The notes under the pieces were generated by a model. It made no database searches. It had not been told where the DNA came from and saw nothing but the letters and a program-made list of their open reading frames with translations. The position numbers and the translations under genes are program-made. A DNA stretch of 64,000 nucleotides, from contig OZ024741.1 of the NCBI GenBank assembly GCA_964016885.1, forward strand, positions 311,178,001-311,242,000. Reading direction: 5' to 3'. Below are positions 11,989-52,887 of the stretch, in pieces. Origin of the DNA: Eledone cirrhosa (lineage: Eukaryota). The stretch's first letter is position 1; every line of letters starts with the position of its first letter.

Positions 11989-12120
11989 CTTGGCAATAGT
12001 GACCAACATAACCTGCATCACATCCAAGTAAACATGTTCCATTTCGCTTGCCACAGTTCCTATTGTCGAGACAATGGCATAACCCCTTACAAGCAACACC
12101 AAACTTTCCTACTGGGCATT
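11989..12120 (-). CDS. EGF-like repeat exon (132 nt, phase 1-1) of a MEGF10/CED-1/SCARF-like multi-EGF protein
   Basis: Bounded by ttttcag|AA and AG|gtatat. Reads ECPVGKFGVACKGLCHCLDNRNCGKRNGTCLLGCDAGYVGHYCQ, with 8 Cys in the CxxGxFGxxCxxxCxC...GxC...GCxxGYxGxxC pattern. Not in the ORF track in this frame. Confidence 0.85.
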
Positions 12121-12315
12121 CTGAAAATATCAATATGTATATGATAATGTTGAAGATATCATTAATTACATACAGATATCAATGATACAATTTTATACCA
12201 AATTTTAAGATTACCATAATAAAAATACCATAATAATAATAAATATATACTACAAAATCGTACCATATTCTAACGGATCCCAAGATATGTATTTGCGACA
12301 TTCTTCCATGTAAAT

Positions 12316-12346
<31 letters not shown>

Positions 12347-12427
12347 ATATAGTGTATATATATATAAATGCATACATACATACATAGGAGATACACTTAT
12401 ACTAGATAAATGCATACATACATACTT

Positions 12428-13068
12428 ACAAGAGAGATACACTTACACCAGAATGGTTGTCAAACAATACTGGTCCCCAAGAACAAATACATCCACCTGG
12501 CAAAAAACAACCGACCCATTTCATGCCAGAACCTGATGTATAAAGTGTATATAGCCTGCCCGAACCTGTTCCTCCAAAATTCCTGTGAAAATAATCACAT
12601 CATCGCAGATGAACAAGCAGCTGGAAAGAAAGTGGTTTTGGGGTGTGTTGAACAATTCCTAATCAATAAAACAGCGATGTAGGAGGTGCGACAACTTAGG
12701 AGGAATAAAGTTACAGTCTGGCTGGACTACAGGAAAGCTTTCGATTCTGCTCCTTTTTCTTGGGCTACTATCCTAAATTTAAAGACAGAGAAGGGGGGAA
12801 TCTATATTCACTGATAAAATAAAATATCACAGAGGTATATTTCAAGGAGACAGTCTCTCTGTTATATTATTTATCCTGTCATTAAACCATTTGTCTTTTC
12901 TGCTGAAGAAATGTGAAGAATACATCATTGGCTCACAGGAAGACAGAAATACGAGTCTAACCCATAATTTCTTTGTGGATGGTCTGAAACTCTATGCCGA
13001 GAACATAGATGGGATGAGGAAAAATCTTGACATGGTTACAACGTTCTCAAAGGATATAGGAATGGAGT
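12428..13068 (+). mobile_element. Truncated R4/Dong-like LINE RT fragment (copies at ~16005-16640 and 19530-20175)
   Basis: RPIACQNLMYK, WLDYRKAFDS, GIFQGDSLS and FFVDGLKL with stops; homologous to 32185-32895. Confidence 0.85.
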
Positions 13069-13117
13069 GTGGTGCCTCATATGAAGATCGAGCAGTCAAC
13101 ACACGTCGACTGCTATC

Positions 13118-15135
13118 GTGAATGTAATTGTAGAAACACGGCCACTTGCCCCATGGCTGGGAAATGCCTCACCAAAAACATAGTCTAAGACTGTAAGGTC
13201 TCCACTTTAGATAGAACCTTCAGGTATGTTGGGGCAACTGCCACTGAATTTAAGGATAGATGGTATAATCACCGCCATACCTATAATTAGATTCAACAAA
13301 TAGCATGGTGCTTTCTGAATTAGTCTGGAAGCTTAAACAACAGTATATAGATCACGCCTTATCCTGGTCCATAATTTGCTCAGCCCGGCTATTTAATGGC
13401 AGGACTGGCGTCTGTAATTTATGTATAGGTGAAACCTTTAATATTATTAGAGGCGGCCCCCTATAAATCAATAGGAGAGTGGATTTTTTAAAGAACTGCC
13501 AACATAGAACCTCTAAAACCTTCCGCAGGATTTTTGGAAAGTAACCTTCCACTAACTCCTCCCACACTACCTTAGCCATAGAGTTCTCTCAATTAGCAAA
13601 AAAAAAAAAGACTATCACACCCTCAGGTAGTTAGACAGCTTAGATCGTTTGCGCACTTACAAACGGTACTCGGCTTGTTTCCACAGAGTTCTCACGGCTG
13701 AGTGCACATTAGAATATCTAGTTAGTAAATAATTAGAATGATTACACACTCAGGTAACAACGATTACGCTCTCTATACATAACTCTACACACAGTACCCG
13801 GTTTCTGGAGACACTGAGTCCCCACAGTTACGACTGGTCAAGTTCCTATCGATTGAACACTACACTAGGTTTTGATCCGTGATCATCTAACCATGGAGTG
13901 CTCACGGTTACAGATTGGAGAATAGTACTTACACACCATTAATGGGCCTACACACATCCTCTGGGTTTTGCTATTCTTTGTTATTTTATTTTACTTTTTG
14001 TGTTGGATAACACACCTCAACCTCTCAAACACATATCTTAAAAGCCCAAGCGCCGATATGACGGGAAATCACACATACTGACACCTTAACCCAAATACCC
14101 AACCCTACACAGAGCCCCTTGGAGGCCTACATAGCGGTTGCTTGCACGCACAGATTTGGGGACTCGGATTCTCAATGGGACAGCGGCACATACTGCGTTC
14201 GTTATGAGCTTACTACTTACTCTTCACATGGATGTGTATATACCTTAACATACACTTTTTTGGACGATACGGAAGTGTATATATCATAACATACACTATT
14301 CGGAGATACGGATGTTACAATTCAATCTATACACGTATAGCAGAACATTGAACTGAAATTACTTGCGTGTCTATAGGGTTGCGGTTGACCCAATTTTTTC
14401 CAATTCTTTTGGACGATTCGGATGTGTATATACCATAACATATACTATTTTGAGATACGGATGTTACAATTCAATCTATACACATATAGCAGAACATGGA
14501 ACTGAACTTACTTGCCTGTGTATAGGCTTGCGGTTTACCCAATGTTTCCAATTTACATCGTCAAATTGAGATTTGAAAAATATAACATTTGCTGTTTTGT
14601 AAACTAACTTTAGGTGAATACTATGTTGGTATATTTATATTTTTTCTTTGACCTCGCGTCAGTGTGTGTGAGTGTGTATAGTCACTGACACTAACTGTGA
14701 CCGTCTATAGTTCTACAGATTTGATGCAATGTTAGTATATGTATATATTTTTTCTTTGACCTCGCGTCGGTGTGTGTTTCTGTGTGTGTACCCACTCACA
14801 TGAACTGTGACCGACTATAATTCTACAGATTTGATTGATATCCAGCGTCTTTTACAGCTATTGCGAGATAGAGACTTGATAGTTTTATGACCCTAACAGA
14901 GGACGATAGCAGTCGCCGTGTTTTCACTGATTGATCTTCATTTGATGGACTAAACTCTGTGAGTCAACAACGTTAATTTTCTCCCTCATATAAAGGATTT
15001 GAAGACAATTCATTTTCACCCGACGAGTTCAGTGATAATCGATCATGGCTGCACGATCGATCTATCTCTTATTGAAACATGTGTCGTATTTAAAATGATT
15101 AGACATTTATACCATGCCTTCGGATCTTTATTTTG

Positions 15136-15138
<3 letters not shown>
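13118..15138 (+). mobile_element. Neptune-like PLE 3' fragment: GIY-YIG remnant plus long 3' region (copies at ~16640-18650 and 20230-22110)
   Basis: CNCR..TCPMAGKCLTKNIVYDCKV..YVGATATEFKDRWYNH..CNLC. Ends in a degenerate hammerhead-like motif (~15006-15100) followed by (TA)n. Confidence 0.72.
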
Positions 15139-15206
<68 letters not shown>

Positions 15207-15385
15207 TTTAGAACTATTAGAACTATTTCATACAAATGTAATGATCAGGAAACCCGTTTCCAGATGAATTCTTTGGATGAAACTATTCCAGTCCTGTAGA
15301 AGCGATTTTTATATTAAACATCATATTTACACACACACACAAACACACATACACACAGACACACGCAAACATATATATATATATA

Positions 15386-15517
<132 letters not shown>

Positions 15518-15569
15518 TGTGCGTGTGTGTGTGTGTGTGTAGTAAATACGTAACAAGTTTTTGATATAC

Positions 15570-15704
15570 CTTGTTGGCAATTGTCACCATCATAACCTGC
15601 ATAACATCCATCTGAACATGTTCCATTTCGCTTGACACAGTTACTATTGTCGAGACAATGGCATAACCCCTTACAAGCAACACCAAACTTTCCTACTGGG
15701 CATT
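15570..15704 (-). CDS. EGF-like repeat exon (135 nt, phase 1-1)
   Basis: AG/GT bounded; ECPVGKFGVACKGLCHCLDNSNCVKRNGTCSDGCYAGYDGDNCQQ (within ORF 15283..15744). Confidence 0.88.
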
Positions 15705-18647
15705 CTGAAAATATCAATATATATGATAATGTTGAAGATATCATTAATTACATACAGATATCAATGATACAATTTTATACCAAATTTTAAGATTACCATA
15801 ATAAAAAATACCATAATAAAAATAATCATATCCTACAAAATCGTACCATATTCTAACGGACCCCACGATATGTACTTGCGACATTCTTCCATTTAAATAC
15901 ACAAACACGCACATATATATATATAATATAGTGTATATATATAAATGCATACATAGATACTTAGAAGATACACTTATACTAGATAAATTCATACATATAT
16001 ACATACAAGTGAGATACACTTATACCAGAATGGTTGACATTAGCACAAACAATACTGGTCCCAAAGAACAAATACACCCACCTGGCAAAAAACAACTGAC
16101 CCATTGCATGCCAGACTCTGATGCATAAGGTGTATATAGCCTGCCTGAACCTGTTCCTCCAAAATTCCTGTGAAAATAATCACATCATCGCAGATGAACA
16201 AGCAGCTGGAAAGAAAGGGGATTTGGGGTGTGTTGAACAATTCCTAATCAATAAAACAGCGATGTAGGAGGTGCGACAACTTAGGAGGAATATGGCGACA
16301 GTCTGGCTGGACTACAGGACAGCTTTCTATTCTGCTCCTCCTTCTTGGGCTACTATCCTAAAGTTAATGACAGAGAAGGAGGACTCTATTTTCACTGATA
16401 AAATAAAATATCACAGAGGTATATTTCAAGGAGACAGTCTCTCTGTGATATTATTTATCCTGTCATTAAACCCTTTGTCTTTTCTGCTCAAGAAATGTGA
16501 AGAATACATCATTGGCGCACAGGAAGATAGAAATACGAGCCTAACCCATAATTTCTTTGTGGATGGTCTGAAACTCTATGCCAAGAACATAGATGGGATG
16601 AGGAAAAATCTTGACATGGTTACAACGTTCTCAAAGGATACTGTAATTGCAGGAAAACGGCCACTTGCCCCATGGCTGGGAAATGCCTCACCAAAAACAT
16701 AGTCTACGACTGTAAGGCCTCAACTTTAGATAGAAACTTCAGGTATGTTTGGGTAACTTCCACTGAATTTAAGGATATATGGTATAATCATCGGGATACC
16801 TTTAATAGAATAGATACAAAAATATCACGGTGCTTTCTGAATTAGTCTGGAAGCTTAAACAACAGAATATAGAGCACTCCTTATCCTGGTCCATAATTTG
16901 GTCAGCCCGGCCATATAACGGCAGCACTGGCGTCTGTAATTTATGTATAGGTGAAACCTTTAATATTCTTAGAGGCGGCCCCCGTTAAATCAATAGGACT
17001 TTTTCAACAAATGCCAACATAGAACCTCTAAAACCTTCCGCAGGATTTTTGGAAAGCAACCTACTACTATCTCCTCCCTCTCTAACTTAGCCATAGAGTT
17101 CTCTCAATTAGCAAAAAAAAAAGACTATCACACCCTCAGGTAGTTAGACAGCTTAGATCGTTTGCGCACTTACAAACGGTACTCGGCTTGTTTCCACAGA
17201 GTTCTCACAGCTGAGTGCACATTAGAATATCTAGTTAGTAAATAATTAGAATGATTACACACTCAGGTAAGAACGATTACGCTCTCTATACATAACTCTA
17301 CACACACTACCCGGTTTCTTTAGACACTGAGTACCCAGAGTTACGACTGGTCACGTTCCTATCGATTGAACACTACACTAGGTTTTGATCCGTGATCATC
17401 TAACCATGGAGTGCTCACGGTTACAGATTGGAGAATAGTACTTACACACCATTAATGGGCCTACACACATCCTCTGGGTTTTGCTATTCTTTGTTATTTT
17501 ATTTTACTTTTTGTGTTGGATAACACACCTCCACCACTCAAACATCTTTCTTAAAAGCCGAAGTGCCGATATGACGGGATATCGCACATACTGACACCTT
17601 AACCCAAATACCCAACCCTACACAGAGCCCCTTGGTGGCCTACATAGCGGTTGCTTGCACGCACAGATTTGGGGACTCAGATTCTCAATGGGACAAGGGC
17701 ACATACTGCGTTTGTTATGAGCTGACTACTTGCTTTTCACATGGATGTGTATATACCTTAACATACACTTTTGGGACGATACGGATGTGTATATACCATA
17801 ACATACACTATTTGGAGCTACGGATGTTACAATTCAATCTATACACGTATAGCAGAACATTGAACTGAACTTACTTGCGTGTCTATAGGGTTGCGGTTGA
17901 CCCAATCTTTCCAATTCTTTTGGACGATTCGGATGTATATATACCATAACATACACTATTTGGAGATACGGATGTTACAATTCAATCTATACACATATAG
18001 CAGAACATGGAACTGAACTTACTTGCGTGTGTATAGTGTAGCGGTTAACCCAATTTTTCCAATTTACATCGTTAAATTGAGATTTGACCAATAAAACATT
18101 TGTTGTTTCGTAAACTAACTTTAGGTGAATACTATGTTGGTATATTTATGTTTTTTCTTTGACCTCGTGACAGTGTGTGTGAGTGTCTGTACTCACTCAG
18201 ACTATTTGTGACCGTCTATAGTTCTACAGATTTGATGCTAATGTTGGTATATGTATATATTTTTTCTTTGACCTCGCGTCGGTGTATCTGTGTCTGTGTG
18301 TGTACCCACTCACATTAACTGTGACCGACTGTAATTCTACAGATTTGATTGATGTCCAGCCACTTTTACAGCTATTGGTAGAGAGAAACTTGATAGTTTT
18401 ATGACCCTAACTGAGGACGATTGCAGTCGCCGTGTTTTGACTGCTTGATCTTCATTTGATGGACTAAACTCTGTGAGTGAACATCGTCAATTTTCTCCCT
18501 CATATCAAGGATTTGAAGACAATTCATTTTCACATGACGAGTTCAGTGATAATCGATCATGGCTACACGATCGATCTATCCCTTATTGAAATATGTGTCT
18601 TGATTAAAATGATTGGACATTTATACCATGCCTTCGGATCTTTATTT

Positions 18648-18682
<35 letters not shown>

Positions 18683-18829
18683 TTTAGAAGTATTAGAACT
18701 ATTTCATTCAAATGTAATAATCAGTAAACCCGTTTCCAGATGAATTCTTTGGATGAAACTATTCTAGTCCTGTAGAAGCGATTTCTATATTAATCATCAT
18801 ATTTACACACACACACAGAGACACACGCA

Positions 18830-18952
<123 letters not shown>

Positions 18953-19023
18953 GCGTGTGTGTGTGCGTGCGTGTGTTTGTGTGTGTGCGTGTGTGTAGTA
19001 AATACGTAACAAGTTTGATATAC

Positions 19024-19158
19024 CTTGTTGGCAATTGTGACCAATATAACCTCCAGAACATCCATGTAAACATGTTCCATTTCGCATGTCACACTTTATA
19101 TTGTTGAGACAATGGCATATCCCCTTACAAGCAACACCAAACTTTCCTACTGGGCATT
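19024..19158 (-). CDS. EGF-like repeat exon (135 nt, phase 1-1)
   Basis: AG/GT bounded; ECPVGKFGVACKGICHCLNNIKCDMRNGTCLHGCSGGYIGHNCQQ. Confidence 0.88.
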
Positions 19159-22108
19159 CTGAAAATATCAATATATATGATAATTTTGAAGATATCATTA
19201 ATTACATACAGATATCAATGATACAATTTTATACCAAATTTTAAGATTACCATAATAAAAATACCATAATAAAAATACTCAGATCCTACCGAATCGTATC
19301 ATATTCTAACGGATGCTACGATATGTATTTGCGACATTCTTCCATTTAAATACACAAACACACACACATATATATATAATATAGTGTATATATAAAAATG
19401 CATACATACATACATAGGAGATACTCTTATACTAGATAAATGCATACATACATACATACATACATACATACATACATACATACATACATACATACATACA
19501 TACATACATACATACATACATACACACATACAAGGGAGATACACTTATACCAGAATGGTTGACATTAGTACAAAACATACTGGTCCCCAAGAACAAATCC
19601 ACCCACCTGGCAGAAAACAACCGACCCATTGCTTGCCAGTATCTGATGCATAAGGTGTATACAGCCTGCCTGAACCTATTCCTCCAAGATCCCTGTGAAA
19701 ATAAACACATCAACGCAGATGAACAAGAAGCTGGAAAGAAAGAAGATTTTGGGTATGAGGAACAATTCCTAATCAACAAAACACCGATGTAGGAGGTGCG
19801 ACAACTTAGGAGGAATATGGCTACAGTCTAGCTGGACTACAGGAAAGCTTTCGATTCTGCTCCTTCTTCTTGGTCTACTATCCTAAAGTTAAAGACAGAG
19901 AAGGAGGACTCTATTTTCACTGATAAAATAAAATATCACAGAGGTATATTTCAAGGAGACAGTCTCTCTGTGATATTATTTATCCTGTCATTAAACCCTT
20001 TGTCTTTTCTGCTCAAGAAATGTGAAGAATACATCATTGGGTCACAGGAAGACAGAAATACGAGCCTAACCCATAATTTCTTTGTGGATGGTCTGAAACT
20101 CTATGCCAAGAACATAGATGGGATGAGGAAAAATCTTGACATGGTTACAACGTTCTCAAAGGATATAGGAATGGCGTGTGGAGCCTCATATGAAGATCAA
20201 GCAGTCAAAACACGTCGACTGCTATCGTGAATGTAATTGCAGAAAATGTAATTGCAGGAAAACGGCCACTTGCCCCATGGCTGGGAAATGCCTCACCAAA
20301 AACATAGTCTACGACTGTAAGGTTTCCACTTTAGATAGAACCATCAGGAATATTGGGGCAACTGCCACTGTATTTAAGGCTAGATAGTATAATCACCGGG
20401 ATACCTTTAATAGATTAGATACAAAAAATATCACGGTGCTTTCTGAATTAGTCTGGAAGCTCAAACAACAGAATATAGAGCACTCCTTATCCTGGTCCAT
20501 AATTTTCTCAGCCCGGCCATATAACGGCAGCACTGGCGTCTGTAATTTATGTATAGCTGAAACCTTTAATATTATTAGAGGCGGCCCCCTTTAAATCAAT
20601 AGGACTTTTTCAACAACTGCCAACATAGAACCTCTAAAATCTTCCGCAGGATTTTTGGAAAGCAACCTACTACTATCTCCTCCCTCTCTAACTTAGCCAT
20701 AGAGTTCTCTCAATTAGCAAAAAAAAAAAGACTATCATTCCCTCAGGTAGTTAGACAGCTTAGATCGTTTGCGCACTTACAAACGGTACTCGGCCTGTTT
20801 CTACAGAGTTCTCACAGCTGAGTGCACATTAGAATATCTAGTTAGTAAATAATTAGAATGATTACACACTCAGGTAATTACAATTACGCTCTCTAAACAT
20901 AACTCTAGACACAGTACCCGGTTTCTTTAGACACTGAGTCCCCACAGTTACGACTGGTCAAGTTCCTATCGATTGAACCCTAAACTGGGTTTTGATCCGT
21001 GATCATTTAACCATGGAGTGCTCACGGTTACAGATTGGACAATACTACTTACACACCATTAATGGCCCTACACACATCCTCTGGGTTTTGCTATTCTTTG
21101 TTATTTTATTTTACTTTTTGTGTTGGATAACACACCTCCACCACACAAACACCTTTCTTAAAAGCCGAAGTGCCGATATGACGGGAAATCGCACATACTG
21201 ACACCTTAACCCAAATACCCAACCCTACACAGAGCCCCTTGGAGGCCTACATAGCGGTTGCTTGCACGCACAGATTTGGGGACTCAGATTCTCAATGGGA
21301 CAACGGCACATACTGCGTTCGTTATGAGCTGATTACTTGCTCTTCACATGGATGTGTATATACCTTAACACACTTTTTTGGACGATACGGATGTGTATAT
21401 ACCATAACATACACTATTTGGAGATACGGATGTTACAATTCAATCTATACACGTATTGCAGAACATTGAACTGAACTTACTTGCGTGTATATAGGGTTGC
21501 GGTTGACCCAATTTTTCCAATTTACATCGTCAAATTGAGATTTGACCAATATAACATTGGTTGTTTTGTAAACTAACTTTAGGTGAATACTATGTTGGTA
21601 TATTTATGTTTTTTCTTTGACCTCGTGACAGTGTGTGTGAGTGGCTGTACTCACTTACACTATCTGTGACCGTCTATAGTTCTACAGATTTGATGCTATG
21701 TTGGTATATATATATATATTTTTTCTTTGACCTCGCCTCGGTGTATCTGTGTCTGTGTGTGTACCCGCTCACATTAACTGTGACCGACTGTAATTCTACA
21801 GCTTTGATTGATGTCCAGCCACTTTTACAGCTATTGGGAGATAGAGACTTGATAATTTTATCACCCTAACTGAGGACGAGAGCAGTCGCCGTGTTTTAAC
21901 TGCTTGATCTTCATATGATGGACTAAACTCTGTGAGTGAACAACGTTAATTTTCTCCCTCATATCAAGGATTTGAAGACAATTCATTTTCACCTAACGAC
22001 TTCAGTGATAATCGCTCATGGCTACACGATCGATCTATCTCTTATTGAAACATGTGTCGTGATTAAAATGATTGGATATTTATACCATGCCTTCGGATCT
22101 TTATTTTG

Positions 22109-22143
<35 letters not shown>

Positions 22144-22300
22144 TATAAATATGCATTTAGAACTATTAGAACTATTTCATTCAAATGTAATGATCAGGAA
22201 ACCCGTTTCCAGATGAATTCTTTGGATGAATCTATTCTAGTCCTGTAGAAGCGGTTTTATATTAAACATCATATTTAGACACACACAGACATGCGCAAAC

Positions 22301-22446
<146 letters not shown>

Positions 22447-22473
22447 TAAATACGTAACAAGTTTTTGATATAC

Positions 22474-22608
22474 CTTGTTGGCAATTGTCACCAATATAAC
22501 CTGCAGAACATCCATCTGAACATATTCCATTCCGCTTGTCACAGTTTCTAATGTCGAGACAATGGCATGTCCCTGTACAATCAACACCAAAGTTTTCTAT
22601 TCCGCATT
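22474..22608 (-). CDS. EGF-like repeat exon (135 nt, phase 1-1)
   Basis: AG/GT bounded; ECGIENFGVDCTGTCHCLDIRNCDKRNGICSDGCSAGYIGDNCQQ, translated by hand. Confidence 0.82.
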
Positions 22609-23754: not shown

Positions 23755-25745
23755 AAAACAAAGAAAACAAATAATGAAATATTACGTGTTATTAACGAAA
23801 TAGGGGATGAATATTTACGACGGATAAAACCCCAACATTTTTGCGAATCAACGCCTGTTTATATGCCTTAGCAACGACAGTGAAGCATTATCTTGGTGAT
23901 AGCAGGGATATTAACAAGAACAGAACACCACCAAAATACCATCATATATAACTAAAATAGAAAAAAAGATTGCTGACCTATGAAAACACAGGATATGTAA
24001 CAATGCTCCTTACATGCAAACAAACACCAAAAAACCTCAGTCCTCACCAACAAAGAGTGAAAAATAAATAGAGACGATGTTTGGTAACAGTAGAACCAGA
24101 ACTCTCCAATATAAGCTGATCACCCTCAAACAAGAATTGAGAGCTGCTAGCGAAAAACGCCGATACCTGAAGAAGGTAGATGAGAGAAAAGGTATCTTGA
24201 ACTTGTTGTTAGACCTCTACCAATGAGTTCTTAAGGGAGATACACTTATACCAGAATGTTTGACATTAGCACAAACATTACTGGTCCCCATAAACAAAGA
24301 CACCCACTTGGCAAAAAACTACCGACCCATTGCATGCCAGAACCTGATGTATAAGATGTATACAGCCTGCTTGAACCTATTCCTCCAAGATCACTGTGAA
24401 AATAATAACATTATCACAGATGAACAAGCAGCTGGGAAGAATGGGGTTTGGGGATTTGCTGAACAACTCCAAATCAACAACACTGCGATGACCGAGGTGC
24501 AACAACTTAGGAGGAATATGATTACAGTCTGGCTGGACTACAGGAAAGCTTTCGATTCTGTTCCCCAGTCTTGGAAGATAGAGGCTCTCCAACTTGCTAA
24601 AGTCCCAGACATTATTGTCAGAGTCATAGAGAGGCTGTCTTCCTAAGGTTAAAGACAGAGAGGGAGGAATCTATTTTTACTGATAAAATAAAATATTTGC
24701 AGGGGTATATTTCAGGGGGACAGTCTCTCTGTGATATTATTCCTCTTGTCATTAAACCCTTGTCCTTTCTGCTCAAGAAATGTGAGGGATAGATCATTGG
24801 CTCACAGGAGAACAGAAATACGAACCTAACACATAATTTCTTTGTAGATGATCTGAAACTCTATGCCAAGAACATGGATGGGATGAAGAAACATCTTGAC
24901 CTGGTTACAACGTTCTCCAAGGATATAGGAATGGAGTTTGGCCAAGATAAATGCTAATACATGACTGAAAAGCGGAAAAAAAAAAATCACTCTATCAACA
25001 TTGTCATCAATGGCCTAATTGTTTCACCGATATCTGATGAGGACTGCTACAGATACCTGGGGATAGATGAGAACATATCTTATAATGGTATCTGTAATAA
25101 AGAACGCGTAACCAGGGAATACTACACCCGATTAAGAAAGATCTGGCTATCGGAACTCTCTGCGCAAAACAAAACAGTGGTTCCCTATGTGCTTTCTTTG
25201 CCTGTCCTAACACCACCGTTTGGAATACTCAACTGGACGATAGACGAAATCCAAGCAGCTGATGTGGGAACTCGAAAAATACTAAACAACACCGGAAACT
25301 TCCACATCAACAGTGACATAGACCGCCTTTACTTGAAACGTAAGCAGGGAGGCAGGGGCCTAAGATCAGTCCAGGCAACATTTGAATGTCGCATCATATC
25401 TCTCCGATATCTACGAACCTCGAAGTGTAGGAGACCATTTCTGGAGCAAGTCTATCTGCATGAAACAGATATGATCATGACAGTTGGGAAGGAACTCCTC
25501 GAGAGATATTCCCTGTGTGATAATCAAAATCTCACACCAAGGGATGTCGCTCAGCAGTATCGCAGTGAATCCATGGATGAAAAACTGCATGCCTATCAGC
25601 AAAACATCATGCATGGATATGTTGCCAGGAGGCTCCAGAGTGAGAGTAATATAGATAAGGAAAGTAGTCTATCTTGGACCAACAACCGCAATATTGGCTC
25701 ATACTTTGAAGGATACGCTTTTGCAATCCAAGAACAGGAGATAAC
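23755..25745 (+). mobile_element. R4/Dong-like LINE family A, truncated and internally deleted
   Basis: Homologous to 31390-33710; WLDYRKAFDSVP and FVDDLKL. Begins directly after a (CATA)n tract. Confidence 0.88.
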
Positions 25746-25747
25746 AT

Positions 25748-26509
25748 TTCAAAACCCAAATAAGTTTCGCAACGAAAGTATAAAAAATGAAAGATTCCAT
25801 TTTCTGTGTCCATCAACAGGTATCCAGAAAATTAGGATGTTTCACCTCGAAATATTTTTGGAGGTCTGGTGTACAAGCGCAAACGCACGTGGTTTTCCAG
25901 CTCACTAGCTAACCCCATACTCATGGTGCTAGAAATAACAGCCGTTTATACGGGATTAAAATTTAGCTCAACAAAAGGAGACGTAATATTATATTATATT
26001 TAGAGATATAAACTCAAACAGTCCTTTACAATTAATAGCACAAAGAAAGAAGCATTTCTGAGCCGTGAAATACACGGTTGCGCTTGTACACCAAACCTCC
26101 AAAAATATTTCGAGGTGAAACATCCTAATTTTCTGGATACCTGTTGATGAACACAGAAAATGGAATCTTTCACTTTTTTATACTATCGTTGCGAAACTTA
26201 TTTGGGTTTTGAAATTCAAATTTGTCTTCGGAACAGGTTTGGATTTTGAAATTTAAATTTGTCCAGGTATCACGGTTATTGCCAATATGGGTTTGTTTTT
26301 ATTGATTTATTATTTTAAATCGAGACAGGCAAACTATGTTTATTTGAATTAGTGTATTTCATTCTAGCTAACTTGGTCTTTACAATACAAACACTTATGT
26401 GTTTATCATATATTAATTTATATTAACTTGTATTTGACGGCTCAGAAATGCTTCTTTCTTTGAGCTAATTAATTGTAAAGGACTGTTTGAGTTTATAACT
26501 CTAAATATA

Positions 26510-28583: not shown

Positions 28584-28831
28584 TATACATATATATATAC
28601 ATATATGCATTTAGATCTATTTCATTCAAATATAATAATCAGGAAAGCCGTTTCCAGATGATTTCTTTGTATGAAACTATTCTAGTCCTGTAGAAGCGAT
28701 TTCTATATTTAACATCATATTTACACACACAAACGCACACAGACACAGACACACGCAAACATATGTATATATATATATATGAGTGTTTGTGTGCGTGTGT
28801 GTAGTAAATACGTAACACGTTTTTGATATAC

Positions 28832-28964
28832 CTTGTTATCAATTGTCACCAACATAACCTGCAGAATCTATCTGAACATGTTCCATTTCGCTTGTCACAG
28901 TTACTATTGTTGAGACAATCGCATGTCCCTATACAATTAACACCAAAGTTTCATATTCGGCCTT
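28832..28964 (-). pseudogene. Dead EGF pseudo-exon (paralogue of 22474-22608)
   Basis: 133 nt. First Cys changed to Gly, in-frame TGA at codon 5, a 2-nt deletion in the GC motif, and last Cys changed to TGA. AG/GT dinucleotides are still present. Confidence 0.85.
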
Positions 28965-29143
28965 CTGAAGTATATATAAGATTTCTATATTAAACATCAT
29001 ATTTACACACACACAAGTGCATGCACGCACACACCCGCACTCACCCACAGCCACACACACAACCACACACACACACACACACGCATATATATGTGTTGCG
29101 TATATAGTAATTATTGTAATTACGTAACAAGTTTATAATATAC

Positions 29144-29275
29144 CTTGGCAAGGGTCACCAATATAACCTGTAGAACATCCATCTGAACATGTTCCATTTC
29201 GCGTGTCACAGTTACTATTGTCGAGACAATGACATGTCCTCTTACAACCTAGACCAAACATTCCTGCTGGGCATT
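29144..29275 (-). CDS. EGF-like repeat exon (132 nt, phase 1-1)
   Basis: AG/GT bounded; ECPAGMFGLGCKRTCHCLDNSNCDTRNGTCSDGCSTGYIGDPCQ. Confidence 0.87.
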
Positions 29276-29720
29276 CTGAAAATATCAATATATATGATAA
29301 TGTTGAAGATATCATTAATTACATACAAATATCAATGATACAATTTTATACCAAATTTTAAGATTAAAGTGATCTTGTGATAAACATATGAACTTGTTTA
29401 CTTATTGAATATTATATAGATCCTCTATAATATATACATGGATGTTTAATTCAATTAAATGCAATGTTAAACACATTATGCAAGACACAAACCATACCAT
29501 AATAAAAATAATCATATCCTACAAAATCTTACCATATTCTAACAGTTCCTACGATATGTATTTGCGACATTCTTCCATTTAAATACACACACACACACAC
29601 ACACGCACACATATATGTATATATAATATATATATATATATAATATATATATATAATATAGTGTATATATATAATATATAATATAGTGTATATATATAAA
29701 TGCATACACACATACATACA

Positions 29721-30471: not shown

Positions 30472-33400
30472 CAGTCAACGCGATCACTCGCATATTTTGG
30501 CATGGGAGACTATTTATTAAATTTAAGATGAATACTATCTCCGACAGTAATGCCACAACTACAGGCAGGTTGAATAACTGGTTATTCTTCTAACTATCCC
30601 TTCTGAAAACACCTTTTATTCGAATTCATAGAGATATCCAACTAAATACATAATTCATTTTAAAAGGATTTGCTACAAACAGCATGGCTGAACACAACAT
30701 TAACAACAAAATTAAGAAAGTATCGAAGACAAATAACAAAGAAGGTAATCAAACTTTATTCAGTTGTAGCTACAGAAGAAACCGAAATTATAAATCGTAT
30801 TTCTCTTGGAGTTGCGAACTTAATAATGATTTATTTAATTGTTATAAAATGGCAAAGACAATCCCTCCATTGGCTATATGAATAGAATGAAGCTACACTG
30901 GGACGAAATGCACCCAGAGCTAAATTATTTCACAGCGAAACAATTAAGCCAACAAGCGACGTTTGTCGAACGTAAAAATAAGATAAATATTATTAATTGT
31001 AAGTCCCCCATAACAAACATGGAATCAACAACACGTGCTACAGATCGACATGCTACTAGACCTCCTAGCAGCCAGGTCGAACAGCGCCTTGAAACAACTA
31101 TGCCTGTGAGAAACTTGACACCACCTGTACCATCTAAGTCTACCTCGAATGCTAGGGAAAACACTATCGATAATAATAATAATAATTGAAGAAATAATAA
31201 TAATAATCGAATAAATGTGACACCACGTATACCACCCGAGTCTACCTCGACTGTTATGGAAAATACTATCGATAATGATAATCAAAAGTATAAACAATTG
31301 AAAACTTCCCTCAACGAAATCTTCCAGAGAGAAATTAACTCATGTATAAATATCTCTCTGGCTGAACGTGTTAAAATGACAATGGTGAATAAAAAAACAA
31401 ATAATGAAATAATACGTGTTATTGACGAAATAGGAGATGAATATTTACGACGGATGAAAACCCCAACATATTGGCAAATCAACGCCTGTTCATATGCCTT
31501 AGCAATGACAGTGAAGCATTATCTTGGTGATAGCAGGGAGATTAACAAGAACAGAACACCACCAAAATACCATCATATATAACTAAAATAGAAAAAAAGA
31601 TTGCTGACCTACGAAAACACAGGGTATGTAACAATACTCCTTACATGCAAACAAACACAAAAGAACCTCACTCCTCACCAACAAAGAGTGAATAATAAAA
31701 TAGAGACGATGTTTGGTTACAGTAGAACCAGAACTCTCCAATATAAGCTGATCACCCTCAAACAAGAATTGAGAGCTGTTAGCGAAAGACGCCGATACCT
31801 GAAGAAGGTAGATGAGAGAAAAATGCTTAATAAAAGATTCAGATGAAACCAAACATCAGTCTATAGAGATATGAAGGGCAGAATAATAAGTGTCACTGAG
31901 GTCCCATCCCATAAAGACATAGATTCCGTTTGGAGAAAAATATGGGGTGAAAAGAAGAATTTCAACCAAGATGCAGTGTGGCTAAGAGAAATCCGAAAGA
32001 ACTATTGCTCCTACACTACAACAAAAACATACGAAATAAGTGAGGGTACCCTTGAGACTGTGATAGGAAAACTCCAAGATAAGAAAACACCAGGAAGAGA
32101 CATGATTGTCGGCTTCTGGTACAAAAATCTGATATTCTATCGGAGGTATCTTACTGACCTCTACCAACAAGTTCTTAAGGGAGATAAACTTATACCAGAA
32201 TGGTTGACATTAGCACAAACGTTACTGGTCTCCAAGAACAAAGATACCCACTTGGTAAAAAACTACCGACCCATTGCATGCCAGAACCTGATGTATAAGA
32301 TGTATACAGTCTGCTTGAACCTATTCCTCCAAGATCACTGTGAAAATAATAACATCATCACAGATGAACAAGCAGCTGGAAAGAAAAGTGTTTGGGGATG
32401 TGCTGAACAACTCCTAATCAACAAAACTGCGATGTCGGAGGTGCGACAACTTAGGAGGAATATGACTACAGTCGTGCTGGACTACAAGAAAGCTTTCGAT
32501 TCTGTTCCCCACTCTTGGATGATAGAGGCCCTCCAACTTGCTAAAGTCCCAGACATTATTGTCAGAGCCATAGAGAAGCTCTCTTCTTCTTGGGCTACTA
32601 TCCTAAGGTTAAAGACAGAGAGGGGGCACTCTATTTTCACTGATAAAATAAAATATTGCAGGGGTATATTTAAGGGGGACAGTCTCTCTGTGATATTGTT
32701 CATCTTGTCATTAAACCCCTTGTCCTTTCTGCTCAAGAAATGTGAGGGATACATTATTGGCTCACAGAAGGACAGAAATACGAACCTAACCCATAACCTA
32801 TTTGTGGACAATCTGAAACTCTATGCCAAGAACATGGATGCGATGAAGAAAAATGTTGACCTGGTTACAACGTTCTCAAAGGATATAGGAATGGAGTTTG
32901 GCCAAGATAAATGCTCATACATGACTGTAAAGCGGGGAAAGACAACAACCCAATCTAGCAACATTGTCATCAATGGTCTAACTGTTTCACCGATATCTGA
33001 TGAGGACTGCTACAGATACCTGGGGATAGATGAGAACATATCCTATAATGGTATCTGTAATAAAGTACGCGTAACCAGGGAATACTACACCCGATTAAGA
33101 AAGATCTGGTCATCGGAACTCTCTGCGCAAAACAAAACAGTGGCTCACAATGTGTTTGCTGTGCCTGTCCTAACACCAACGTTTGGAATACTCAATTGGA
33201 CGATAGACGAAATCCGAGCAGTTGATGTTGGAACTCGAAAAATACTGAACAACACCGGAAACTTCCACATCAACAATGACATAGACTGCCTTTACTTGAA
33301 ACGTAAGCAGGGAGGCAGAGGCCTAACATCAGTCCAGACAACATTTGAATGTCGCATCATATCTCTCCGACAACATCTACGAACCTCGAAGCTTAGGAGA

Positions 33401-34597
33401 CCGCTTCTCGAGCAAGTCTATCTGCATGAAACAGATGAGATCATGAGAGTTGGGAAGGAACTCCTCGAGAGATATTCCATGTGTGATAATCAAAATTTCA
33501 CACCCAGGGATGTTGCTCAGCAGAATCGCAGTGAATCCATGGATGAAAAACTGAATGCCTATCAGCAAAAAATAATGCATGTATATGTTGCAAGGAAGCT
33601 CCAGAATGAGAGTAATATAGATAAGGAAAGTAGTCTATCTTGGACCAACAACCGCTATATTGGCTCCCACTTTGAAGGATACGCTTTTGCAATCAAAGAA
33701 CAGGAGATTAGCACAAAATACCTGATTCACAAAAGAGATAGGGATGCAGGCAAAACACCTACATGTGATAACAAATGCAGACTCTGCAGAACTAATATCG
33801 AGGATATCACCCATGTCATCAGCAGCTGCCCAAAGATGTCATCGCGCTACTATCTACCCATGAGGCATGATGTAGTGACCAAAACACTGTACAATGCAGT
33901 TCGTAAAAAAGATAGCCCCGATAATAAACACATTAAAAGCTACAGCAATGTGGAAGACATCTATGTACATAATATGAAAGAGTACTGGTGGAATGTTCCA
34001 GTAAAACCCCAATAAAATGCCGGCATAACAGACCAGATATTATGATATGGGATAGGGAGAAGAAAACATGCACAGTAGTGGAAATTAGCTGCCCAGCAGA
34101 TGCCAATATAATATCAAAGATTAGTTAAAAGGAGAATATTTATGCAGAACTGATGGGAAATCTGCAGATAGTCCACCCTGATTACTCCTTCAGATTTATG
34201 CCTGTGATTATTGGAGCACTGGGATATGTTAGTAACTGCCTCAATACAAATCTTGAGAAGCTTGGCTTCACAGGAACAGAAAGAACACAACTAGTTAGGA
34301 AACTACAAGTACAATCCATTAATGGAACAGTAAAAATATGTAAAACATTCCAAAAATATTGCATCTAATAACTGCATATACACATGTACAAATACAAATC
34401 ATATACACATGCACACATACAACTCAAAATATACACATCCACACATACGATAACACCCATATCTACACATGCATGCATACATACATATCTACCTAGCTGA
34501 TGTTGTGTAAATTCCAATGAGAGAGTCATGTGTCTATGTTAGAAACCGACTCTCTCTCTATTGGTAAAACTTTGTGAAATTATAAAACCAGAAGAAC
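30472..34597 (+). mobile_element. Near full-length R4/Dong-like non-LTR retrotransposon, family A (RT, CCHC finger, RLE), inactivated
   Basis: ORF 31871-34015 has LDYKKAFDSVPH, GIFKGDSLS, LFVDNLKL (catalytic D to N), CRLC..H..C and RHD; downstream frame reads HNRPDIMIWD..VVEISCP. Contains stops and frameshifts. Flanked by CATA repeats. Confidence 0.92.
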
Positions 34598-34666: not shown

Positions 34667-37600
34667 AAATGGCGACCGTTGTGGTCAGTGTCCGATAATG
34701 GGACGTGTGTAATTACGGCTTACATGAAGGCAACATACCATATATTGGAACAAGTTGAGCTACATTACGTGGTAAGATTACATACAATAATTCTACATAA
34801 GTTTTTGAACTGTAAGTGTGTTGTAAAACACCTATTTATATGAGCGATACATACACTTATGATATATGAACGATACATACACTTTAACATATAAATGCAA
34901 CGTTGTTATATTACATTTATAAAGAAATATACAAGTAACGTTTTCGATTCAGAAACAAAAACATAAGTGTTTGAACTGTGAATATGTTGTGAATAAGTTG
35001 TACAACACCTATTTATTTGAATGATTCATAAACTTTAACATATAAATACAGCGTTGTTATATTATATTACATTCATAAAGAAATATACTAAGTAACGGTT
35101 CTTTTTGTTCTCGATTCAAACGATTCAAGAACAACGCTTAAAACACAGTTGTAGAATTAAAAACTAAGTGAAAAGAAATATTACCCAAGTTGTGAATAAC
35201 TTTAAATTTGATTCCGACAGAACTTTGTCGAAATTTTAAAGAAGATCATCGACTATTTTGAAAAATAAATACGAAATATTAGTGAATAGACGAAATATTA
35301 GACGAAATATTAGTGAATAGACGAAAGTACAAGTCTCCTTCGACCAAATCGCAACTACGACCGTTGTATACACTGGAGCTACGAGCTTAACAAAGAATTA
35401 TATAAAGCATACAAACAATCTGAACCCCAAAAGTTCGGTTTTATGCAAAGGCTAAAAACTTTATGGAACTCCAAACACCCAGAATTAGACTTTTCTACAA
35501 AGCATTTAAATGAACAGGCAAAACGTAAAATTAGATGTAAATTGATACATCTAACGGAATTGAGTGATACTACAAATACAGCCCTTGTAGACAACCACCC
35601 CACCTCCACTGACAGACAAAGAGAATGGCCAGCTAAATCTAACAGTGAACAGCTCACCAACAATTTTGCTGAAATCCATCCCACTTCCACTGAAGAACAG
35701 CGAGAAAGGTCAGCTAACTCTGGTAGTAATTGTCACCACATCAACAACGAGGCTGAACTTCATGACTCTACTGAACAAACAGAACACCAAAAACTTGTGG
35801 ACACATTACAAGTGATATGAAACGATATGTTTCAAGAGATACACTGCCTTAATGTGAGTGACAGACCATACAACGCCAGGATCAGTAAAGAGCCCACTAA
35901 ATTGGAATTGGAAGCAGTGAACGAAATAGCTGGCAATTATCCGAAGACTATACGATCTAAAGGTGTAGAAGCGACATTTGAAACACTTAATATTTTGTTA
36001 TATGTTTCAGCTGTCACGTTGCTATCGTATAACACACATCTAAAACCACGCAATCAAGATACAAACAGAAAGCCTGAACCAGCGTGGATTGGAAATTTAA
36101 AAAGCAAAATGTTGTCCCTGAGACGAAGTATCTCACACATCGCAGTCGTTATGAAATGCAACATACAGAGCAACTTCACACGACACCAGGAAGACCTAAA
36201 GAAAAAGTTTGAGAGACGATTTGTAGATACAAAATTTAAAGCTTTGAACTCCAAATTACACCAGTTGAAACAACAACTCACAGCTACAACAGAAAGACTA
36301 AAATATAAGTCAGCAGCACATAAACGACAAGTGCTAAATAGATTGTTTTCCAGAGATCCTAAATCAGTTTATCGCAGCTTCGGTGACAAAAGCTCAATCC
36401 CTGTACACGACACCCCTTCAAATGAACAGGTTGAGAGCTACTGGAGATCTGTATGGGAAACGGATGACGGATTCAACAGACAAACTAATTGGCTAAAAGA
36501 ACTGGAACAGGAGTACTGCCAACATGTCCAGACAAAACAATATGACATAGATGGGTCAATACTGGAAACAGCACTACAGAAAATGTCGAATAGGAAATCG
36601 CCAGGCCCAGACCTCATTACAGGATACTGGTTGAAGTATTTCACTTTCTATCGGCAAGATCTCATACAGCTGTTTACAGAAACCATTAAAGGCACACAAG
36701 AACGGCCCAGATGGTTATCAACTGCCACTACGCTCCTCATTCCCCCAAATAGCCAAACCACCCTTGCTAAAAATTACCGCACAAAGCCTGCCAAAACATC
36801 ATGTATAAATTATATACTGGGTGCCTTAACCTGTTCTTACAGGATCACTGTGCTACCAACAACATCATAACACCTGAGCAAGCTGGTGGAAAGAGGGAGG
36901 TGTGGGATTGCATAGATCACCTACTAACTAACAAAATGATTCAGGAAAAAACAACAAAGAATCGCAGAAACATGACTGTGGTGTGGCTGGATTATCAAAA
37001 AGCATTTGATAGTGTACCTCATGGGTGGATTATTAAGCCTTTACAGTTAACCAAAGTCCCACAACCATTGGTAGCTGCTGTTGAACGCCTGACCAAGAAC
37101 AGGTACACCAATTTGATACTTAGAGGTGAGAAGGAGCAAGTTAAGACTGATAAGATACATTACCAGAAGGGCATCTTTCAGGGTGATAGCTTGTCAGTGC
37201 TACTCTTCGTTCTCTCACTGAATCCACTATCTTAGGAAACAAGCTGGACAAAGAAGTGGGTCCAGAAGTATCTCCCATCTTTTCTTAGTTGATGACCTGA
37301 AGTTGTATGGGCCAAATATTAATGACATCAAGAAACAATTGGACCTCATTACACAATTTTCAACCGACATCAAAATGAAATTTAGTGAGTCCAAGTGTGC
37401 ATATTTGGCAGTAAAACGTGGAAGAGCTGTGCCCTCCTCTAGAAATCTAGAGATGAACGGCCTGACAATACAACCTCTACAGTCAGGTGACAACTACAGA
37501 TATCTTGGACAGGATGAGAATGTCAGATATGATGGACCCATAAATAAGGATAGAACCAGAAGTGAATACCTCAGAAGAATAAAGAAAATATGGTCATCAT

Positions 37601-38898
37601 AACTGTCAGCGTATAACAAATACTTATGCGTACTACAATACTTATGCTATGCCAATTCTAATGCCAACATTTGACCTGCTGAACTGGTCATTGCAAGAAC
37701 TAAGTGAGATGGATGTTAGAACTCGAAAACTTCTCAGTGTTACTGGGAACTTTGACATCAATGGTGATGTGGATAGGCTATACTTCTCACGCAAGGAAGG
37801 TGGCCGGGGTCTAAAATCAATATTAACAACATATGAGACCCGGATAGTAACACTGAAGCAAGACCTTCAACAGAGGAAAAAGGTTGGCAACCATCTTGCC
37901 CAGGTTTATGAGCATGAAAAAAAAAATATCATTAGAATAGCGACTGATCTGGAGGAGAGATATGGAATAAAGCCTGATATAAATCTCTCACCCAGAGAAA
38001 TCGGAAGATCCTATTCAATATTCAAACGAGATAAAAAAATTGACCAATTTACAGAAAAAGTTGTGCATGGATACTTCAGACGTAAAACAAAGACCATAGA
38101 GAGGATAAACCACTCAAAAAGCCTAGCATGGAGTTTCGACAAGTTTATGACATCACACCTTGAGGGATATCTCTATGCAATACAGGAACAAGAACTCCCT
38201 ACCAAATATCTGCTGCACAAAGAGGAGGGCCAGCAGCTGACAATAAATGTAGGCTATGTAAAGCAAAGATCGAGGATGTAAGCCACATTGTTGCCAGCTG
38301 CGAAAGAATGTCATCTCGCTACTACCTCCCCATGAGACACGATGGCATAGCTAGAACCATCTGGAACACACTTCGGAAAACAAAATTAACAACAAACGAG
38401 GAAGAATATATTGAGACAGATGGCACTAAGGAATACTGGTGGAACCTGAAAATAAAAACTGCCACCAAATTAAGCACAACCGGCCTGATATTGTTGTTTG
38501 GGACCACACATTGAAAACGTGTTCTGTTGTGGAGATCAGCTGCCCACTTGATGTAAACATTGTCAGAAAAATACAGAAGGAGGACATCTACGGACCATTG
38601 ATGAGGAGTTTACAAATCCAGTATCCAAGATACACCTTTAGCTTCATACCCATCATTATTGGAGCTACGGGTTATATACCAACCCGCTTGGACCAAAATA
38701 TGACTGAACTTGGATTTGCGGACAAAAAGCGCAGCTCCCTAATTCATAGTCTACAAATGGCTGCGATAGCTTGCACCTTCAAAATTTGCAAAACTTTCTT
38801 GCGATTCAAGGGATGACAATTTCTTTTCTTTTACAACCTTGCCACCAAAAAGGTGGCTGGTAAAATAAAATATACTCGAAATTAAGAGAAAGCGATAA
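34664..38898 (+). mobile_element. Near full-length R4/Dong-like LINE, family B, frameshifted
   Basis: KSPGPD, WLDYQKAFDSVPH, GIFQGDSLS, FLVDDLKL, MSSRYYLPMRHD and HNRPDIVVWD..VVEISCP. (CATA)n on both sides. Confidence 0.92.
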
Positions 38899-39958: not shown

Positions 39959-40205
39959 CGAGTTGCGAACTTAATAATGATTTATTTAAGTTAAAGATGT
40001 ACATCCATATATGTATACTGAAATACTAGTATGTATATGAATACACACACGTATACATATGTAGATGTACCAAGTTTTTTCACTGGTCACTTTACTGTGA
40101 GTGGCCAGCTATTCTGTATGTAAACACACAGACAAACCGGTTTTTATAGTCATACTGGTTTTTGAGGAAACACCTTTCCTCTATTCTGCAGAAAGCCAGA
40201 CAAGG

Positions 40206-40250
40206 AATATTGAACTAGTTTCGTTGTTGTTACAACTCATCAGCAATATT
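40206..40250 (-). ncRNA. Minimal type I hammerhead ribozyme (inverted arm)
   Basis: Exact reverse complement of 40653-40697. Confidence 0.85.
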
Positions 40251-40652
40251 TACCTATCTTCCGGCCTTTCTAGAGAATCGTAAAAGCACATATCGTTATA
40301 TGCTTTTTCTATGAAAATTAGTAGTGGGCAGACTAATTTGCATAGAGTGTGAGTAAGTACCGGTTCAACGGAGACGATAAAACAAATAACGAAACGAAAT
40401 TAAATTTCGTTTCGTTTGTAACTCACTTTTGTATGACTGACGCTTAAACAATTAAGTTAAAGATGTACATCCATATATGTATACTGAAATACTAGTATGT
40501 ATATGAATACACACACGTATACATATGTAGATGTACCAAGTTTTTTCACTGGTCACTTTACTGTGAGTTAAAGATGTACAACCATATATTAAGTTAAAGA
40601 TGTACATCCATATATGCTTTTACGATTCTCTAGAAAGGCCGGAAGATAGGTA

Positions 40653-40697
40653 AATATTGCTGATGAGTTGTAACAACAACGAAACTAGTTCAATATT
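40653..40697 (+). ncRNA. Minimal type I hammerhead ribozyme
   Basis: AAUAUUG-CUGAUGA-GUUG(uaacaa)CAAC-GAAA-CUAG-UU-CAAUAUU, with perfect stems I and II and a palindromic CUAG stem III. Confidence 0.85.
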
Positions 40698-41118
40698 CCT
40701 TGTCTGGCTTTCTGCAGAATAGAGGAAAGGTGTTTCCTCAAAAACCAGTATGACTATAAAAACCGGTTTGTCTGTGTGTTTACATACAGAATAGCTGGCC
40801 ACTCACAGTAAAGTGACCAGTGAAAAAACTTGGTACATCTACATATGTATACGTGTGTGTATTCATATACATACTAGTATTTCAGTATACATATATGGAT
40901 GTACATCTTTAACTTAATTGTTTAAGCGTCAGTCATACAAAAGTGAGTTACAAACGAAACGAAATTTAATTTCGTTTCGTTATTTGTTTTATCGTCTCCG
41001 TTGAACCGGTACTTACTCACACTCTATGCAAATTAGTCTGCCCACTACTAATTTTCATAGAAAAAGCATATAACGATATGTGCTTTTACGATTCTCTAGA
41101 AAGGCCGGAAGATAGGTA

Positions 41119-41163
41119 AATATTGCTGATGAGTTGTAACAACAACGAAACTAGTTCAATATT
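41119..41163 (+). ncRNA. Minimal type I hammerhead ribozyme (next tandem copy)
   Basis: Identical to 40653-40697, 466 bp downstream. Confidence 0.85.
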
Positions 41164-44100: not shown

Positions 44101-44782
44101 ATGCAGTTCGTAAAAAAGATAGCCCTGATAATAAACACATTAAAAGCTACAGCAATGTGGAAGATATCCATGTACATAATATGAAAGAGTACTGGTGGAA
44201 TGTTCCAGTAAAAACCCCAATAACATGAAGGCATAACAGACCAGATATTATGATATGGGACAGGGAGAAGAAAGCATACACAGTAGTGGAAATTAGCTGC
44301 CCAGCAGGTGCCAATATAATATCAAACATTAGTGAAGTGGAGAATATTTATGCAAAACTGCTGATTACACCTTCAGATTTTTGCCTGTGATTATTGAGGT
44401 ACTGGGGTATGTTAGTAACTGCCTCAATACAAATCATCAGAAGCTAGGCTTCACAGGAACATAAAGAACACAACTAGTTAGGAAATTACAAGTACAATCC
44501 ATTAATGGAACAGTAAAAATATGTAAAACATTCCAAAAATGTTGCATCTAATAACTACATATACACATGTACAGATGCAAATCATATACACATGCACACA
44601 TACAACTCAAAACATCCACATCCACACATACGATAACACCCATATCTAGACATGCATGCATACATATCTACCTAGTTGATGTTGTGTAAATTCCAATGAG
44701 AGAGTCATGTGTCTATGTTAGAAACCGACTCTCTTTATTGGTAAAACTTTGTGAAATTATAAAACCAGAAGAACATACATAC

Positions 44783-50519: not shown

Positions 50520-50563
<44 letters not shown>

Positions 50564-51008
50564 GTAAGTACGTAACAATGTTATGATGATGTTCAACATA
50601 TCATTAATTACATACAGATATCAATGATACGATCTCATACCAAATTTTAAGATTAAGCTGGTCTTGTGATAAACAAATACACTTGCATATTTATTGAAGA
50701 TTATATCGATCCTCTATAAAATATACATGGATTTTTATTTCAGTTAAAAGCAATGTTAAAAAATATTATGAAAGAAACAAACTATATTATACGTAAAATA
50801 ACATTTATAATCCTTCCAAATCTTATCATATTCTAACAGTTACAACGATATGAAATAACGACATTCTAACATTTAAATAAACACACACATAAACACACAC
50901 ACATATAGATATATATATATAATATATAATATATAATGTATATATATAAATGCTTACATACACACATACAACCATACATACATACATACACACACACACA
51001 CAAACACG

Positions 51009-52887
<1,879 letters not shown>

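Follow-up and report, generated by a model that had tools for sequence, protein, structure and literature searches.

The 133-nt stretch at positions 28832..28964 (minus strand) of the 64,000-nt piece of Eledone cirrhosa DNA analysed here, referred to as the window, is best read as one copy, now decayed, out of a tandem array of EGF-like exons. The array likely belongs to one living cell-surface receptor gene, and the decayed copy is likely skipped without regulation. We assign this reading as a whole a probability of roughly 70%. The productive mRNA likely omits the exon, because only this copy has died while the seven others stay under selection. Judged from the genomic DNA, such an omission is likely, and the copy is likely a pseudoexon that results from birth-and-death of exons in a fast-diversifying receptor array. 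A decayed and skipped copy had been named in the preliminary description of the region as the mundane alternative; among the readings compared here it is the best fit.

The exon array and its decayed copy

A search of the 64-kb window with nhmmer (--max) identified eight exon copies at E<=1.2e-49 and nothing further below E=2. The dead copy is one of these eight copies of a phase 1-1, eight-cysteine EGF-like exon on the minus strand. The most 5' copy in the window is C2 (53299..53433, 135 nt, minus strand, as are all those that follow). It is followed by A0 (29144..29275, 132 nt, phase 1-1, eight cysteines), which ends 179 nt upstream of the dead copy. After the dead copy come C1 (23184..23318, 135 nt), B1 (22474..22608, 135 nt), which is the sister of the dead copy, A1 (19024..19158, 135 nt), A2 (15570..15704, 135 nt) and, most 3' in the window, A3 (11989..12120, 132 nt). 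Five intact exons downstream in transcript order, and one intact exon at a distance of about 180 nt, had been described before, and both observations hold, the intron to A0 measuring 179 nt. The description of the intact exons as phase 1-1 and multiples of three in length also holds for 7 of 7. Each is 132 or 135 nt long, is bounded by AG and GT, and encodes a module of 43-44 residues. Fifteen of the 43 columns are invariant across the intact copies, including all eight cysteines. Throughout the array the donors are GTATAT and the introns GT-AG. A 200-nt assembly gap (59242-59441) upstream of the first exon copy could hide further exons.

The bounds of the dead copy are exact, with AG directly before 28964 and GT directly after 28832 on the minus strand. 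In the phase-1 reading codon 4 is TGA, and once the frame has shifted there is a stop at codon 39. It is 74-88% identical to the seven intact copies, and the closest of these is B1 (88%). Over codons 1-43 the dead copy and B1 differ by 16 substitutions and a 2-nt deletion. Seven of the substitutions and the deletion are private to the dead copy, the other six intact copies siding with B1 at these positions. The private changes are Cys1 to Gly (28962), Gly4 to a TGA stop (28953), a substitution at 28938, His15 to Asp (28920), Gly32 to Arg (28869), the 2-nt deletion at about 28865-28866 within Cys33, Cys42 to TGA (28839) and Gln43 to TAA (28838). B1 has four changes of its own, at which the six others match the dead copy; none of them affects a cysteine or creates a stop. 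In total there are four disabling events in the dead copy (Cys1, the stop at codon 4, the deletion, and the Cys42/Gln43 stops) against none in the seven intact copies, and therefore the gene does not seem to be dead as a whole. The earlier claim of a stop-containing, frameshifted exon amid intact exons is confirmed by the TGA at codon 4, the 2-nt deletion and the two further stops.

The preliminary description had also pointed to the AG and GT that the dead exon retains. They are indeed present, but they are uninformative, because about eight substitutions in 129 nt would spare all four bases with P=0.77. Compared with the sister, there is one pyrimidine change in the last 20 bases of the acceptor, and the donor is identical over 12 bases. 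The splice sites thus look as good as those of the sister and would not in themselves explain silencing. Two stop-free sub-exons of 51 and 75 nt, starting from a cryptic AG at 28928, have weak sites and three cysteines and were judged to be chance.

The copies at 12.0, 15.6 and 19.1 kb sit in exon-plus-intron units of about 3.5 kb. The three paralogous introns of these units (12121..22473) are 5.6-6.9% divergent, with 14-19 gap events per pair, and were used as a neutral yardstick. The intron between A0 and the dead copy (28965..29143, minus strand) is 179 nt long and begins with 164 nt from the start of the standard downstream intron, i.e. the donor and a CA/TA/TG microsatellite block, to which a 15-nt acceptor is joined. 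The middle of a normal multi-kilobase unit intron is gone, which leaves a TG-rich tract near the acceptor. About 40 nt separate the end of this tract from the AG, and there is a single branch-point-like TTAAT at +151. Between -120 and -40 the dead copy has 28 TG dinucleotides and B1 has 26, compared with 6-7 in the other six copies. Of the aligned bases in the upstream intron, 114 out of 128 match between the dead copy and B1 (11% divergence). From this shared acceptor region it follows that both copies come from one duplication. Folding of 28700-29290 gave z=-2.6, and structural silencing is not proposed here, as the microsatellite blocks pair locally on each side of the dead exon instead of looping it out.

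A ninth unit that lacks the exon is located at 50540..50899 (minus strand). Here the upstream flank is fused to the downstream flank at about 50580, and about 165 nt with the acceptor, the exon and the donor are lost. The decayed copy and the exon-less unit together imply that duplication creates new units and that units are lost through point decay or deletion. The eight exon copies and the one exon-less unit are shown to have arisen via duplication of the exon with its introns. The preliminary description mentioned neither the ninth unit nor the fact that selection is diversifying the intact copies (see below).

A 34-nt word (28678-28711) is found downstream of most exon copies, with nine matches in the window, and contigs pile up on it to a total depth of about 240,000; it comes from a dispersed repeat of very high copy number that has become part of the exon unit. 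The 3.5-kb units also contain a two-copy tandem repeat of 148-149 nt (14258-14553 and 17768-18064) with no protein match.

Other elements were observed in the window as well. A 965-codon open frame at 1337-4234 (minus strand) has a weak RT match (Pfam RVT_1, E 3e-4, below the cut-off) and a C-terminal 'VVY...YIGET' motif that we take to be GIY-YIG, which makes an intact Penelope-like retroelement likely. At 4383-5525 (plus strand) there is a second relic, which is broken. Non-LTR retrotransposon copies on the plus strand (31847-34015, 35317-38816, 41722-46490 and 24227-25908; RVT_1 E 2e-22) have an end, 'RHD...RPDIVV', that is presumably a restriction-like endonuclease. All of these copies are antisense to the receptor gene and located within its introns, and short pieces of them are carried in the 3.5-kb units. 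At 39986-41457, inverted and direct repeats (190-580 nt, 98.7-99.7% identical) are nested in one another and represent either a fold-back element of recent origin or an artefact of assembly. Palindromic or inverted MITE-like elements are located at 56739-57236 (arms 89% identical), 63546-63734 (88%) and 51528-52384 (97%).

Selection among the intact copies and the likely identity of the gene

To estimate neutral survival, simulations were run on the exon tree with rates derived from the introns, using the full, half and one-third tree length and 20,000 runs each. The probability that all seven copies keep the frame, have no stop and retain eight cysteines was 0, 0.0002 and 0.003, respectively. 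Selection acts on all seven intact copies, and in the five downstream ones it is purifying on the cysteines and the frame. Since these five copies are free of lesions, the gene did not die with the first lesion in the dead exon.

Pairwise dN/dS exceeds 1 in 21 out of 21 intact pairs, which are non-independent, with values from 1.2 to 7.5 and one pair without any synonymous change. The codon models give an overall omega of 2.5 (p=0.02 versus 1), and the comparison of M2a with M1a (p=0.001) places about 60% of the codons at omega 4.7 and 40% at 0.27; these tests use seven short sequences, simple custom model code and a tree with weak support, 46-69 at three of its four inner nodes. The pooled pN/pS is 2.34. 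Neutral simulations, about 1,500 for each of 12 settings and run with simple custom model code both with and without random conversion tracts, attained this value in no more than 0.6% of cases per setting. The intact copies diversify fast at non-cysteine codons on a fixed cysteine scaffold.

A profile built from the seven units matched 22 proteins among 297 candidates, and four of the best seven are Octopus proteins with E-values from 1e-149 to 4e-50. The Octopus relatives contain F5/8C, EGF units, a hydrophobic segment and a tyrosine-phosphatase (PTP) domain, and the number of units per chain in the relatives is 5-14. The closest relatives are receptors from O. sinensis and O. vulgaris with 55-70% identity per unit, and no close protein (>75%) was found in the protein searches. 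The Octopus proteins therefore appear to be members of the family and not the gene in the window. An exhaustive protein search returned 1,948 matches at E<=0.001, and the ten that were examined are molluscan and amphioxus MEGF/draper/RPTP-like proteins. According to tblastn with five relatives, and with the N- and C-terminal parts of six relatives, there is no non-EGF exon in the 64-kb window, neither a start, a TM nor a PTP exon. With 180 proteins, tblastn gave one stray match (E 2e-4, 41442-41645) amid retrotransposon relics. Going by these relatives, the gene is likely a F5/8C-EGF(n)-TM-tyrosine-phosphatase receptor or a truncated relative of one, with its other exons beyond the window.

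Single units stay under the Pfam cut-off, with E 0.02-0.11 in two out of three. A near-length protein search gave no match, a single-exon protein search gave one, and a sequence search of the PDB gave one weak match, 6u11_A. The AlphaFold model of one unit has a mean pLDDT of 43.8 and is too poor to use. With the pairing of laminin-type EGF modules, each exon would contain the four disulfides of its unit in full, and units would therefore be freely removable.

The O. sinensis gene LOC115219456 has eight RefSeq models. X1-X3 contain all 10 units, while in X4-X8 unit 10, unit 5, units 2-3, units 5-7 or units 2-5 are missing exactly. Two of the three shorter Magallana models lose a single block, of 46 and 138 residues. 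Both the RefSeq and the Magallana models are computational and may reflect mis-mapping of reads between similar units or deletion alleles. As modelled, the RefSeq set appears to describe cassette loss of whole units, not a choice of one among N.

The receptors of LOC115219456 and its neighbours (XP_036365016-25; O. vulgaris CAI9733294-99) have the same eight-cysteine unit as the window, 55-70% identical, and their unit number differs by whole units both among paralogs and among RefSeq models. However, they alternate between unit types of 43 and 45 residues, whereas the window has the long type only, and they carry non-EGF domains, none of which is found within the window. The model of O. sinensis XP_029644740.2 (691 aa) ends right after an EGF unit, without TM/PTP, and is possibly a secreted form or a truncated model.

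Probable skipping of the dead copy and the alternatives

The loss of one unit of phase 1-1 and 3n length would cost one module of about 44 residues and keep the frame, and a copy that was weakly included would therefore be free to die. Leaky inclusion of the dead exon would likely be removed by nonsense-mediated decay (NMD). Because its splice sites appear no weaker than those of the sister, partial inclusion combined with NMD is plausible. The TG-rich tract before the acceptor may have weakened inclusion, by what we assume to be an analogy with TG-repeat silencing in CFTR exon 9; against this account, B1 carries the same tract and the same TG-rich acceptor region, yet it is intact.

The preliminary description argued that the dead exon must be skipped if the downstream exons are translated. 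We infer such skipping as well, and the argument gains from the purifying selection on the five downstream copies and from the fact that between no two copies is there a non-EGF exon of the related receptors. The latter also makes one array in one gene the simplest reading of the sequence. Skipping of the dead exon would be marked by a junction from 29144 to 23318. The skip models in RefSeq come from a gene that is only 55-70% identical per unit, which counts against the support that they give.

Nothing need be skipped if the exons are spread over several genes, or if their gene has since become a pseudogene. We consider this unlikely. Related receptors are clustered, with four O. sinensis relatives on contigs of one size (68,403,164), and 24 kb of retrotransposon relics lie between C2 and A0; these observations would suit separate genes, as does the lack of any start, TM or PTP exon in the 64 kb. 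However, non-EGF exons of the relatives would be expected to separate such genes and are seen between no two copies. A dead gene is hard to reconcile with zero disabling lesions in the five downstream copies against four in the dead one, or with the low neutral survival (P<=0.003), and even if the whole gene had died very recently, earlier skipping would still be required. The case of separate genes or a pseudogene, which the preliminary description had set against its own proposal, is accordingly not favoured.

A second alternative keeps the exon in use, as a regulated poison or terminal exon whose stop at codon 4 on inclusion leads to NMD or to a secreted ectodomain. The splice sites that match the intact sister and the position of the in-frame stop, just four codons in, are compatible with a poison exon. 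There is, however, no sign of conservation in the comparison with the sister copy (exon 12%, upstream intron 11% diverged), the retention of AG and GT is expected anyway (P=0.77), and the lesions past the first stop would serve no purpose. As to a terminal exon, AATAAA occurs seven times before the next exon, but seven in 5.5 kb equals the window average (88 in 64 kb). The O. sinensis model that ends after an EGF unit without TM/PTP would fit a secreted form. On balance this alternative, which had been proposed before, is very unlikely, as the comparison of the exon and its upstream intron with the sister shows no trace of the conservation that it calls for.

In a Dscam-like arrangement the exons would form a mutually exclusive set with one variant per mRNA, and the dead exon would be a dead variant. 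Tandem homologous exons of equal phase and size that diverge under positive selection are what such a set would look like. In the sections of PMC4165533 used here, four mechanisms of mutual exclusion are described: steric interference, U2/U12 incompatibility, NMD of non-3n combinations and docker-selector pairing. Steric exclusion is contradicted by the shortest intron, which measures 179 nt and has its branch-like site at +151, compared with less than 40 nt in C. elegans, and 3n exons would give no exclusion enforced by NMD (both according to the same sections of PMC4165533). The introns are uniformly GT-AG with GTATAT donors, which argues against U2/U12 incompatibility. For docker-selector pairing, we searched the window for stretches able to pair with the 150 nt that precede each copy; the best matches outside microsatellites are 11-15 nt long with E 0.03-1.7, and a docker could also lie beyond the window. 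One stretch of 13 nt (52339-52351) matches the complement of a site that lies about 55-65 nt before six of the eight copies (E=0.11 per query). As the flanks are paralogous, this is one chance-level event counted six times; the stretch is probably chance, though placed where a docker would be, and is a weak lead. Further, a single chain holds 5-14 units in the relatives, and all 10 are present in the full model. A Dscam-like set is therefore highly improbable. Of the two modes of use that the preliminary description had considered, cassette use is backed by the whole-unit skipping annotated in a relative, while mutual exclusion is unsupported. In human, most tandem exons become constitutive after duplication, according to the part of PMC8373072 consulted.

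To evaluate the lesions in the DNA itself, we compared the window with contigs from three runs (X1, X2 and X3) of one sample, which is possibly the assembly's own source, so that they are not independent. Introns and exons are covered alike, and the contigs were therefore taken as genomic DNA that carries no splice information. Pieces with zero differences span 28923-28990, which includes the first stop and the Cys1 change, at depth 20 in X1 and 22 in X2, and 28803-28866, which includes the last two stops, at depth 11 in X1. The window's base at 28962 is present in all three runs at a depth of about 20-22. The stops in the dead copy are real, at least in that sample. The window's base at 28920 is absent from every contig aligned there in X1-X3, and the 2-nt deletion is spanned by none of the 24 pieces listed, beyond which there are 2318 more, so that this says nothing for or against it. 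Some contigs have the undeleted sequence at 28865-28866, seen as loose ends in X1 and X3 and as 'AC put in' in X3. The frameshift and His15 to Asp may be allele-specific, assembly errors, or the result of paralog confusion.

Lesions produced by assembly errors, or a copy that is a mis-assembled duplicate, are highly improbable: the microsatellite-rich region, the base at 28920 and the undeleted versions at 28865-28866 point that way, but the codon-4 stop with Cys1 to Gly in zero-difference contigs of X1 and X2, the last two stops in X1 and the base at 28962 in all three runs point against errors, and a distance of 12% from the nearest paralog points against a duplicate.

Contig joints that skip 283, 384 and 127 nt were rejected as splicing, having short sides and no GT-AG ends; they fit paralogous DNA together with a 33-nt direct repeat that flanks the dead exon on both sides. 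Over parts of A0 and its acceptor the summed depth is 1,300-3,500, which is no copy number, compared with 11-30 for the zero-difference pieces, and 760-798 contigs were aligned per run. This hints at many look-alike units in the genome.

Known systems and the biology of the array

A decayed, skipped domain exon has a parallel in pseudoexon 3 of KIR2DL, which in the portions of PMC2808958 and PMC2973822 used here is likewise a domain exon that has died while its receptor lives on and evolves fast. The KIR exon encodes an Ig domain in a multigene family, whereas the array here has many tandem EGF copies in one gene, and skipping is experimentally known for KIR2DL and predicted for the octopus dead exon. 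Arrays 4, 6 and 9/11 of arthropod Dscam are likewise tandem duplicated ectodomain exons that evolve by birth-and-death (PMC3236188, in the text accessible to us). They differ in that one exon per array is used in each mRNA, while the octopus relatives string units together, and in that the introns of the octopus array are mostly kilobases long. There is also a signal of positive selection among the octopus paralogous exons, whereas none was found for Dscam within that same text of PMC3236188. Gain and loss of domain exons combined with positive selection is described for mollusc receptors in the exonization and pseudoexonization of lophotrochozoan RLRs, but there a different protein family is concerned, with grafting of single domains and no tandem array (PMC8998645, going by the extracts available). 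Mollusc EGF and RPTP transcripts, which may be related to the octopus gene, appear in snail anti-schistosome responses, in the excerpt of PMC13619432 seen. No publication on the octopus array was found in the literature searched, most subscription papers and supplementary tables lying outside it.

The dead exon is a case of ordinary decay, and by its logic it shows that the array tolerates the loss of a unit. The part of the locus worth following is the positive selection on the live copies. A pN/pS of 2.3 among paralogous exons of what is likely one gene is a pattern typical of arms-race recognition surfaces.

We tentatively suggest, as a possibility that we regard as rather unlikely, that the octopod lectin-EGF-phosphatase receptors form a variable recognition repertoire, made by a high rate of EGF-exon birth, positive selection and death together with combinatorial cassette skipping. 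If so, the dead exon and the exon-less unit would be turnover caught in progress. Protocadherins and RNA editing are other routes to diversity in cephalopods, and combinatorial use of the cassettes would be a route to receptor diversity apart from these. The ectodomains of such a repertoire would be specific to a cell or an individual and would serve immune recognition, allorecognition or the self-recognition of neurons.
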